The position numbers and the translations under genes are program-made. The notes below the pieces were generated by a model. The model was not told the DNA's origin. It did no database searches and saw nothing but the letters and a program-made list of their open reading frames with translations. 64,000 bases of DNA from Escherichia coli. GTDB lineage: Bacteria; Pseudomonadota; Gammaproteobacteria; Enterobacterales; Enterobacteriaceae. Within the stretch, counting starts at the first letter, position 1; each line of letters starts with the position of its first letter. Positions 11,335-11,520 of this stretch are shown piece by piece. Where the stretch lies: the NCBI RefSeq assembly GCF_016026235.1, contig NZ_CP065613.1. One strand, written 5' to 3'.

Positions 11335-11520
11335 GCACGGGTGTTGGTGGCGTCAAAATCGCCGAAGCGTTCCCTTGCGCCCGACCCGGTAGCCGCAAGG
11401 AATAAGCTGAGGGAACCGCGCAGCGGCGATTTTGTTCGCCAGAGCCTGGGGGTGCAGGGGGCGGCGGCGATTGGCCGTCCCCTGCGCGCTCCTTGCGCCA
11501 GTGACTTTATATGGCATAGC
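11335..11520. repeat. GC-rich nested-palindrome element in the alx-sstT intergenic region
   Basis: Perfect inverted repeat aaaatcgccg (11355-11364) / cggcgatttt (11424-11433) enclosing ttccc/gggaa and ccttgcg/cgcaagg; second palindrome gcagggg/cccctgc. Confidence 0.5.

Follow-up and report, generated by a model that had tools for sequence, protein, structure and literature searches.

What is the GC-rich, palindrome-bearing core that occupies the spacer between alx and sstT in the 64,000-nucleotide stretch of Escherichia coli DNA analysed here (the window; NCBI RefSeq assembly GCF_016026235.1, contig NZ_CP065613.1)? A sequence-only reading of the window had described a spacer of 555 bp, and this is indeed its length, alx ending at 11238 and sstT starting at 11794. 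It had also described a GC-rich core in an otherwise AT-rich spacer. The composition is as reported, with 63.2% GC for 11335-11538 against 35.4% and 40.0% in the two flanking parts of the spacer, but the core ends at 11538 and not at 11520. Three identities had been left open, namely a member of an intergenic repeat family other than REP, a structured RNA and a protein-binding palindrome. The first is the one that our analysis supports: the element belongs to the TRIP1/RRS family, as a TRIP1d. The features discussed below are the following.

10273-11238, + strand: alx coding sequence, TerC-family membrane protein, upstream neighbour (open reading frame; annotated alx in three orthologous loci)
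11335-11538, + strand: TRIP1d repeat (RRS family), 204 bp, internally deleted allele of a 264-bp element (published position, identity)
11342-11370, + strand: P1, long closing stem, 5′ arm, which includes aaaatcgccg (RNAalifold helices 1-2; fold of the window copy)
11366-11373, + strand: deletion junction, sole remaining CGTTCCCT (comparison with full-length TRIP1d)
11418-11451, + strand: P1, 3′ arm, which includes cggcgatttt (inverted repeat, RNAalifold, fold of the window copy)
11448-11467, + strand: RRS G-quadruplex (G4) motif GGGGGTGCAGGGGGCGGCGG, intact (exact match, unique in the window, none expected by chance)
11454-11485, + strand: domain II, GC-rich hairpin (gcagggg/cccctgc) whose 5′ arm overlaps the G4 motif (inverted repeat, helix 10)
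11486-11535, + strand: domain III, 9-bp stem (11486-11494/11527-11535) with an AT-richer loop of 32 nt (inverted repeat, helix 11)
11794-13038, + strand: sstT coding sequence, downstream neighbour (open reading frame)

Judged by its position, boundaries and identity, the stretch 11335-11538 is a TRIP1d copy of the Escherichia TRIP1 repeat, the element also known as RRS, at the alx-sstT locus. The published TRIP1d is 264 bp long, lies 96 bp past the alx stop codon and 255 bp before the sstT start, and was found in 23% of genomes, forward in every case (PMC10888264). Projected on the window, these distances give 11335-11538, and homology to the other copies starts and ends exactly there, the last conserved letters being GCGCAAC (to 11538). 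The window copy is 98.6% identical to the full-length TRIP1d of strain 4069 over 207 aligned bases, and 90.3% identical to the K-12 TRIP1a and TRIP1c over aligned bases. Pairwise identities published for TRIP1a-e range from 84 to 94%, and the value that we obtain for K-12 TRIP1a and TRIP1c, 94.0%, is the published one (PMC10888264). The GC content likewise fits the published TRIP1 range of 62-65%. Across the element region the window is 100% identical to strain FDAARGOS_943. What the window copy does not have is the published length of 264 bp and the "double-Y" fold, its hairpins A and B being deleted. This short length is compatible with membership, as a shortened TRIP1, the 146-bp TRIP1b, is already counted in the family (PMC10888264).

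The element has therefore already been described, alx-sstT locus included, and the palindrome is real but not new. The sequence-only reading could not place it because TRIP1/RRS elements are left unannotated by PGAP and in the MG1655 record, and the main value of the identification is a correct annotation. Beyond the published papers, the analysis adds the 60-bp deletion allele, the selection on the fold of the G-rich strand and a resemblance to TwoAYGGAY RNAs with CsrA-type loops, all of them minor. Taking all the evidence jointly, we hold it to be probable that the window carries a decayed TRIP1d/RRS copy, an element acting at the level of DNA and a weak trigger of replication gaps at most.

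Aligned with the full-length TRIP1d of strain 4069, the window copy shows a single clean deletion of 60 bp. In the full-length element, two copies of the 8-bp direct repeat CGTTCCCT stand exactly 60 bp from each other, and a second exact CGTTCCCT is missing from the other TRIP1 loci. This layout points to slippage or short-homology recombination as the probable route of the deletion. Two internal hairpins, A and B, were removed, and the closing stem, the G4 motif and the two 3′ hairpins were kept. When 11300-11570 was compared by megablast with 5,426 complete E. coli genomes, 1,659 of them held the TRIP1d locus and 28 gave single-piece full-length matches; besides FDAARGOS_943, the strains with the deleted allele are, with few exceptions, Shiga-toxin strains typed O145 or O145:H28. 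The best matches among the remaining TRIP1d records come in two pieces and span about 60 bp more. Different internal deletions were seen in five of 20 aligned TRIP1 copies, and such recurrent, independent losses fit a structure-prone sequence. The O145:H28 allele, which keeps the G4 without the two hairpins, offers a natural dissection for locating the part of the element that causes gaps.

The deletion also bears on the palindromes. The inverted repeat aaaatcgccg (11355-11364)/cggcgatttt (11424-11433) lies where the sequence-only reading had put it and is a genuine closing stem; it extends to 16-nt arms (11354-11369 and 11419-11434) that are 88% complementary. The two repeats nested in it are present as described, ttccc/gggaa within perfect 7-nt arms (11369-11375 and 11410-11416) and ccttgcg (11373-11379) pairing with cgcaagg (11394-11400), but they do not belong to the conserved pairings of the family. 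As the deletion removed hairpins A and B, this part of the "nested palindrome" is largely a refolding of the remnant, and the ccttgcg/cgcaagg pair is not maintained in other TRIP1 copies. The palindrome reported downstream, gcagggg/cccctgc, extends to 12-nt arms (11454-11465 and 11474-11485; 92% complementary) and corresponds to domain II, and a third hairpin pairs 11486-11494 with 11527-11535. Folded as RNA, the + strand reaches -109 kcal/mol against -85.1 ± 4.6 for dinucleotide shuffles (z -5.18; 0 of 200 as good) and the - strand a z of -3.15; for folding as DNA, the z values of the two strands are -4.85 and -4.74.

The 3′ arm of domain III is Shine-Dalgarno-like (AAGGAG). In many copies this end of the element is followed, 6-9 nt on, by an ATG that opens a tiny reading frame of 3-27 codons, for instance MMNQHITTS in K-12 aqpZ and MMKLNKRFIVSNMLRFHYYRSLSISIA in E69 dusC (such sites are at 3283-3312 of locus L032, 1767-1805 of L005 and in L017, the dusC-B allele). 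The equivalent stretch of the window, 11539-11560, has no ATG. About 25 nt downstream of the element are weakly conserved between loci.

Is the fold maintained in the family? We derived a consensus with RNAalifold from 14 full-length copies, taken from four loci and several Escherichia species, and it consists of three domains. In domain I, a closing stem of 25 pairs (P1, helices 1-2, with 100% of cells paired in the 14 copies) encloses smaller stems besides hairpin A, whose loop is CAUGGAUG, and hairpin B (UUACAGGGAYGUUACC). In domain II, a GC hairpin has its 5′ arm within the G4 motif, and in domain III a loop of 32 nt is closed by a 9-bp stem. Of the 80 pairs, 8 show compensatory double changes; column shuffles give 2.0 ± 1.1 and slid-partner controls 0-2. 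The overall share of paired cells is 98.8%, as opposed to about 45% with slid partners; the former is inflated by the structure having been derived from the same sequences, the compensatory counts being the informative part. Helix 10, in domain II, carries two compensatory C-G to A-U changes, in the copies alxB_whitt (E. whittamii) and dusCB_E1V33 (Escherichia sp. E1V33); judging from these changes, the domain II hairpin, a competitor of the G4, is itself maintained. Where only one side of a pair has changed, 11 positions retain a G-U pair on the G-rich (+) strand, compared with 3 on the other strand. This bias identifies the G-rich strand as the one that folds, and RNA and single-stranded DNA would fit it equally well. 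We take the comparison of the copies to show that selection maintains the fold of the G-rich strand. The fold as well as the G4 thus shows compensatory evolution, the G4-competing hairpin included.

The BLASTN comparison proposed by the sequence-only reading confirms that the element is multi-copy. Indeed, with 11320-11530 as query, 5,425 of the 5,426 complete E. coli genomes gave matches, at a median of four places per genome, and the 64-kb window holds one copy only. That reading had made its case depend on other copies and on a conserved pairing, and both exist. An element of about 267 bp was retrieved at alx-sstT, aqpZ-lysO, dusC-yohP and putP-efeU, which are four of the five published TRIP1 loci. 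In K-12, TRIP1a lies at aqpZ-ybjE (lysO), TRIP1b at putP-ycdN (efeU) and TRIP1c at yohI (dusC), and two more types, TRIP1d among them, are found in other strains (PMC10888264). TRIP1b of K-12 has a published internal deletion of about 125 bp (PMC10888264), which we confirmed in the K-12 putP copy examined.

At alx-sstT, MG1655 has no TRIP1; its spacer of 398 bp carries a different multi-copy repeat. The alx-proximal spacer exists in at least two unrelated alleles (window 11239-11610 and 2547-2760 of the MG1655 locus extract). With a minimum coverage of 80%, the K-12 allele is present in 2,581 genomes; its repeat is GC-rich, found at a median of 14 places per genome, and may be Box C-like. Two other observations concern the surroundings of the element in the window. 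Upstream of sstT and outside TRIP1, a 20-nt imperfect inverted repeat (11623-11642/11711-11730; 70% complementary, arms 68 nt apart) is conserved in MG1655 save for two substitutions in its left arm, and could be a regulatory feature of sstT. The segment 32000-48000 has a GC content of 0.45-0.47, against 0.50-0.54 in most of the remaining window, and may have been acquired horizontally.

Outside E. coli, the element was found in E. albertii, E. whittamii and unnamed clades, that is, in Escherichia only, in a scan that used a single exact 20-mer from the most conserved stretch and one genome per species of bacteria and archaea. The RRS papers describe the element as widely conserved in enterobacteria (Pham et al. 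PMC10287960, PMC11194060); since our scan relied on one exact word, we see here a caveat and not a contradiction. Matches to the 20-mer outside Escherichia were set aside, being either bare 20-mers in unrelated metagenome-assembled genomes (MAGs) or contigs that probably derive from E. coli. One such contig of 583 bp, labelled Bacillus sp. and with a coverage of 0.7, joins the K-12 lysO and putP flanks (each 100% identical) through a full-length TRIP1, and is probably an E. coli-derived TRIP1a/TRIP1b recombinant or a chimeric assembly. Another, labelled as a Proteobacteria MAG, carries a dusC-side flank that is 98% identical together with part of a second, inverted TRIP1 copy, and is probably also derived from E. 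coli.

What would such an element do? The name RRS ("replication risk sequence") was given independently by Pham et al. to the lysO and dusC copies of K-12, near-identical inverted repeats of 222 bp which flank the Ter domain at about 650 kb on either side of dif (PMC10287960, PMC11194060). Their G-rich strand carries the G4 motif GGGGGTGCAGGGGGCGGCGG (PMC11194060), which the window copy retains intact. [quoted passage not shown] PMC10287960, PMC11194060). According to a 2026 preprint, the inverted orientation does give gaps in vitro, at a lower frequency (bioRxiv 10.64898/2026.06.16.732529). K-12 TRIP1b (MG1655 putP-efeU, 3855-4005 of locus L033) keeps domain II, and its G4 region reads GGGACAGCAGGGGGCGGCGG, which explains why Pham et al. 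report no third G4 site in K-12.

According to the work published on the K-12 lysO and dusC copies, the element acts at the level of DNA: the G-rich strand of an unwound duplex folds into stable hairpins and a G-quadruplex, which block the DNA polymerase and leave a lagging-strand gap of up to about 2 kb, on which SSB and RecA load. TRIP1 copies are also substrates of homologous recombination, by which large chromosome segments are inverted. The window copy is a secondary, decayed member, having lost its 60 bp, probably by slippage or recombination between the 8-bp direct repeats, and we infer that it is a weak gap trigger at most. Its main consequences would be a structure- and recombination-prone spot, and a structured tail on any alx read-through transcript.

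The predicted weakness comes from the orientation relative to the fork. The dusC copy of MG1655 is on the - strand and is reported to have its G4 on the lagging template (PMC11194060). The window copy is on the + strand, and alx, at 3.239 Mb in MG1655, belongs to the same replichore as the dusC copy. Being in the same replichore and on the opposite strand, the window G4 should lie on the leading-strand template, by synteny with K-12 MG1655; a negative net GC skew across the window lends this weak support. Such an orientation is the one reported to trigger gaps weakly or not at all. Again by synteny with K-12, the window copy would lie about 1.65 Mb from dif, outside the dif-symmetric inverted pair that MG1655 carries at 0.915 and 2.229 Mb, the two copies of which occupy 915,015-915,281 and 2,229,122-2,229,389.

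Orientation varies in nature. At aqpZ-lysO, dusC-yohP and alx-sstT we found opposite orientations across lineages, with different junctions and subtypes. TRIP1a and TRIP1c are known to occur in both orientations at high frequency in natural populations (PMC10888264), as also seen here, and this is awkward for a strict need of the G4 on the lagging template. A reversed TRIP1d was observed at alx-sstT in E. whittamii, whereas TRIP1d of E. coli is only forward in Li et al. (PMC10888264). Compared with K-12, E. whittamii has its dusC copy in the opposite orientation and its alx copy oriented like the K-12 dusC copy, so that one G4-on-lagging copy per replichore may be retained.

A maintained fold would also suit a structured RNA made from the G-rich strand, which in the window would be the 3′ UTR of alx, with the hairpin loops ACAUGGAUGU and UACAGGGAUGU of full-length copies binding CsrA, so that the element would be a sponge or regulator of the TwoAYGGAY kind. 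We consider such a role unlikely. Under it the window copy would be a loss-of-function allele, exactly those two hairpins having been deleted. The + strand has an RNA fold 16 kcal/mol more stable than that of the - strand, and an RNA function would account just as well for the G-U bias of the + strand; however, G-T wobbles are tolerated in single-stranded DNA too, and the bias fits a DNA element. Three full-length copies match the Rfam TwoAYGGAY model from end to end (33.1, 30.9 and 30.6 bits; E 0.025-0.56), but none reaches the gathering score of 43, and no match to the model was obtained for the window copy at E ≤ 10. The loops agree with the CsrA SELEX consensus RUACARGGAUGU, with ACA, GGA and GU present and 11 of 12 positions matched in hairpin B, and CsrA binding of TwoAYGGAY has already been proposed (Gardner and Eldai). 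For dusC and ybjE, the E. coli CsrA gene tables of Potts et al., which may omit intergenic peaks, have "No" in each of their four unlabelled Yes/No columns. A scan found no terminator-like site between the alx stop codon and the element, which would suit transcription into it; on the other hand, scans of three copies revealed no promoter-like or terminator-like site attributable to the element, and its orientation relative to the neighbouring genes varies between loci and strains. The sequence-only reading had suggested looking for transcript ends, and the Adams et al. 2021 Term-seq supplements examined contain no 3′ ends for dusC, yohP, aqpZ or lysO. Of its structured-RNA proposal, covariation and strand bias stand, and we found neither a promoter or terminator proper to the element nor evidence of a transcript or of CsrA binding. 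Hence we do not regard an RNA role as the best explanation, nor do we file the element as a TwoAYGGAY member. That the two-hairpin core of full-length TRIP1/RRS is a diverged member of TwoAYGGAY, an orphan RNA family, is a proposal to which we give a small chance. If true, the TwoAYGGAY and TRIP1/RRS literatures describe one kind of element, and either TwoAYGGAY is elsewhere a DNA-level replication-gap element or TRIP1/RRS is transcribed into a CsrA-binding RNA, of whose module the O145 allele would be a natural knock-out. Among the papers that a search for TwoAYGGAY retrieved, none deals with TRIP1 or RRS. That the deleted module resembles TwoAYGGAY and CsrA sites has the merit of suggesting an alternative function that is cheap to test.

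The multiplicity of the element, its presence/absence polymorphism (TRIP1 is missing from the alx-sstT spacer of MG1655), its restriction to Escherichia in the 20-mer scan and its occurrence in either orientation at three loci, with different junctions and subtypes, would be expected from the remnant of a small, non-autonomous, MITE-like element that entered intergenic hot spots independently and has no present function. We judge this improbable, as the alignments show neither terminal inverted repeats nor target-site duplications, 99% of 15,941 copies sit at five fixed loci, with no sign of ongoing transposition (PMC10888264), the compensatory changes indicate that the fold is maintained, and the K-12 RRS copies have published phenotypes (Pham et al. 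PMC10287960). An IS200/IS605-like element was also considered, for the TTAC by the left end in several copies and the subterminal hairpins; it was dropped for want of an Rfam IS605/omega-RNA match, a consistent target or an associated transposase. The palindromes and open frames of the element could further suggest an operator of alx or sstT, or a short protein-coding gene among three overlapping frames of 82, 71 and 54 codons. Both readings were rejected and have, in our opinion, hardly any chance of being right: the identical type of element adjoins unrelated genes elsewhere, 1-nt indels separate the copies, as do frame-breaking deletions of a length not divisible by three (25 bp and 11 bp, for example), the substitutions are paired and preserve stems, and none of the three frames has a Pfam match. 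The protein-binding palindrome suggested from the sequence thus found no support, and we retain the TRIP1d/RRS copy as the explanation of the locus.

The leader of alx is regarded as a pH- and Mn2+-responsive member of the yybP-ykoY riboswitch class; in two Rfam searches at E ≤ 10, the leader region 9990-10272 gave no yybP-ykoY match. On the window region of the element, Rfam gave chance-level matches only (mir-939, Zeta-pan).

How does the element compare with known systems? REP/BIME and Box C of E. coli are likewise GC-rich palindromic intergenic repeats found downstream of genes. TRIP1 has no sequence or model similarity to them, is much longer, and occurs in 1-5 copies per genome as against tens to hundreds. 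That the palindrome is not a canonical REP had been correctly perceived: the REP/naRNA4 model, which finds REPs in other loci, has no match in 9900-12000.

TwoAYGGAY (RF01731) was described as a very long P1, of 24 bp for example, closing two hairpins, and its Psychromonas ingrahamii members in the original alignment are multi-copy, with ACAUGGAUGU and UACAGGGACGU loops (Weinberg et al. 2010). Full-length TRIP1 shares the long closing stem (about 25 bp), two adjacent hairpins with the loops ACAUGGAUGU and UACAGGGAYGU, the multiple copies and an end-to-end alignment to the Rfam model. Its first loop fits with AUGGAU, whereas the second, AGGGAY or AGGAC, does not strictly do so, and TRIP1 has two further 3′ domains and the G4. 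The window copy has the long P1 without both TwoAYGGAY-like hairpins.

With the RRS of lysO and dusC, the window copy shares homology, the intact GGGGGTGCAGGGGGCGGCGG on the same strand, a high GC content and strong self-folding; it differs in having lost 60 bp of the 222-bp core and in its distance from dif, about 1.65 Mb and not 650 kb. With TRIP1d itself (Rudd 1999; Li et al. 2024, Genes 15:236, PMC10888264), it has in common the locus, the boundaries, the forward orientation and a GC content of 63%. It is 204 bp long and not 264, the 60-bp deletion having taken one arm of the "double-Y", and this deleted allele is an addition to the description given by Li et al. 2024 (PMC10888264), from which it is absent.
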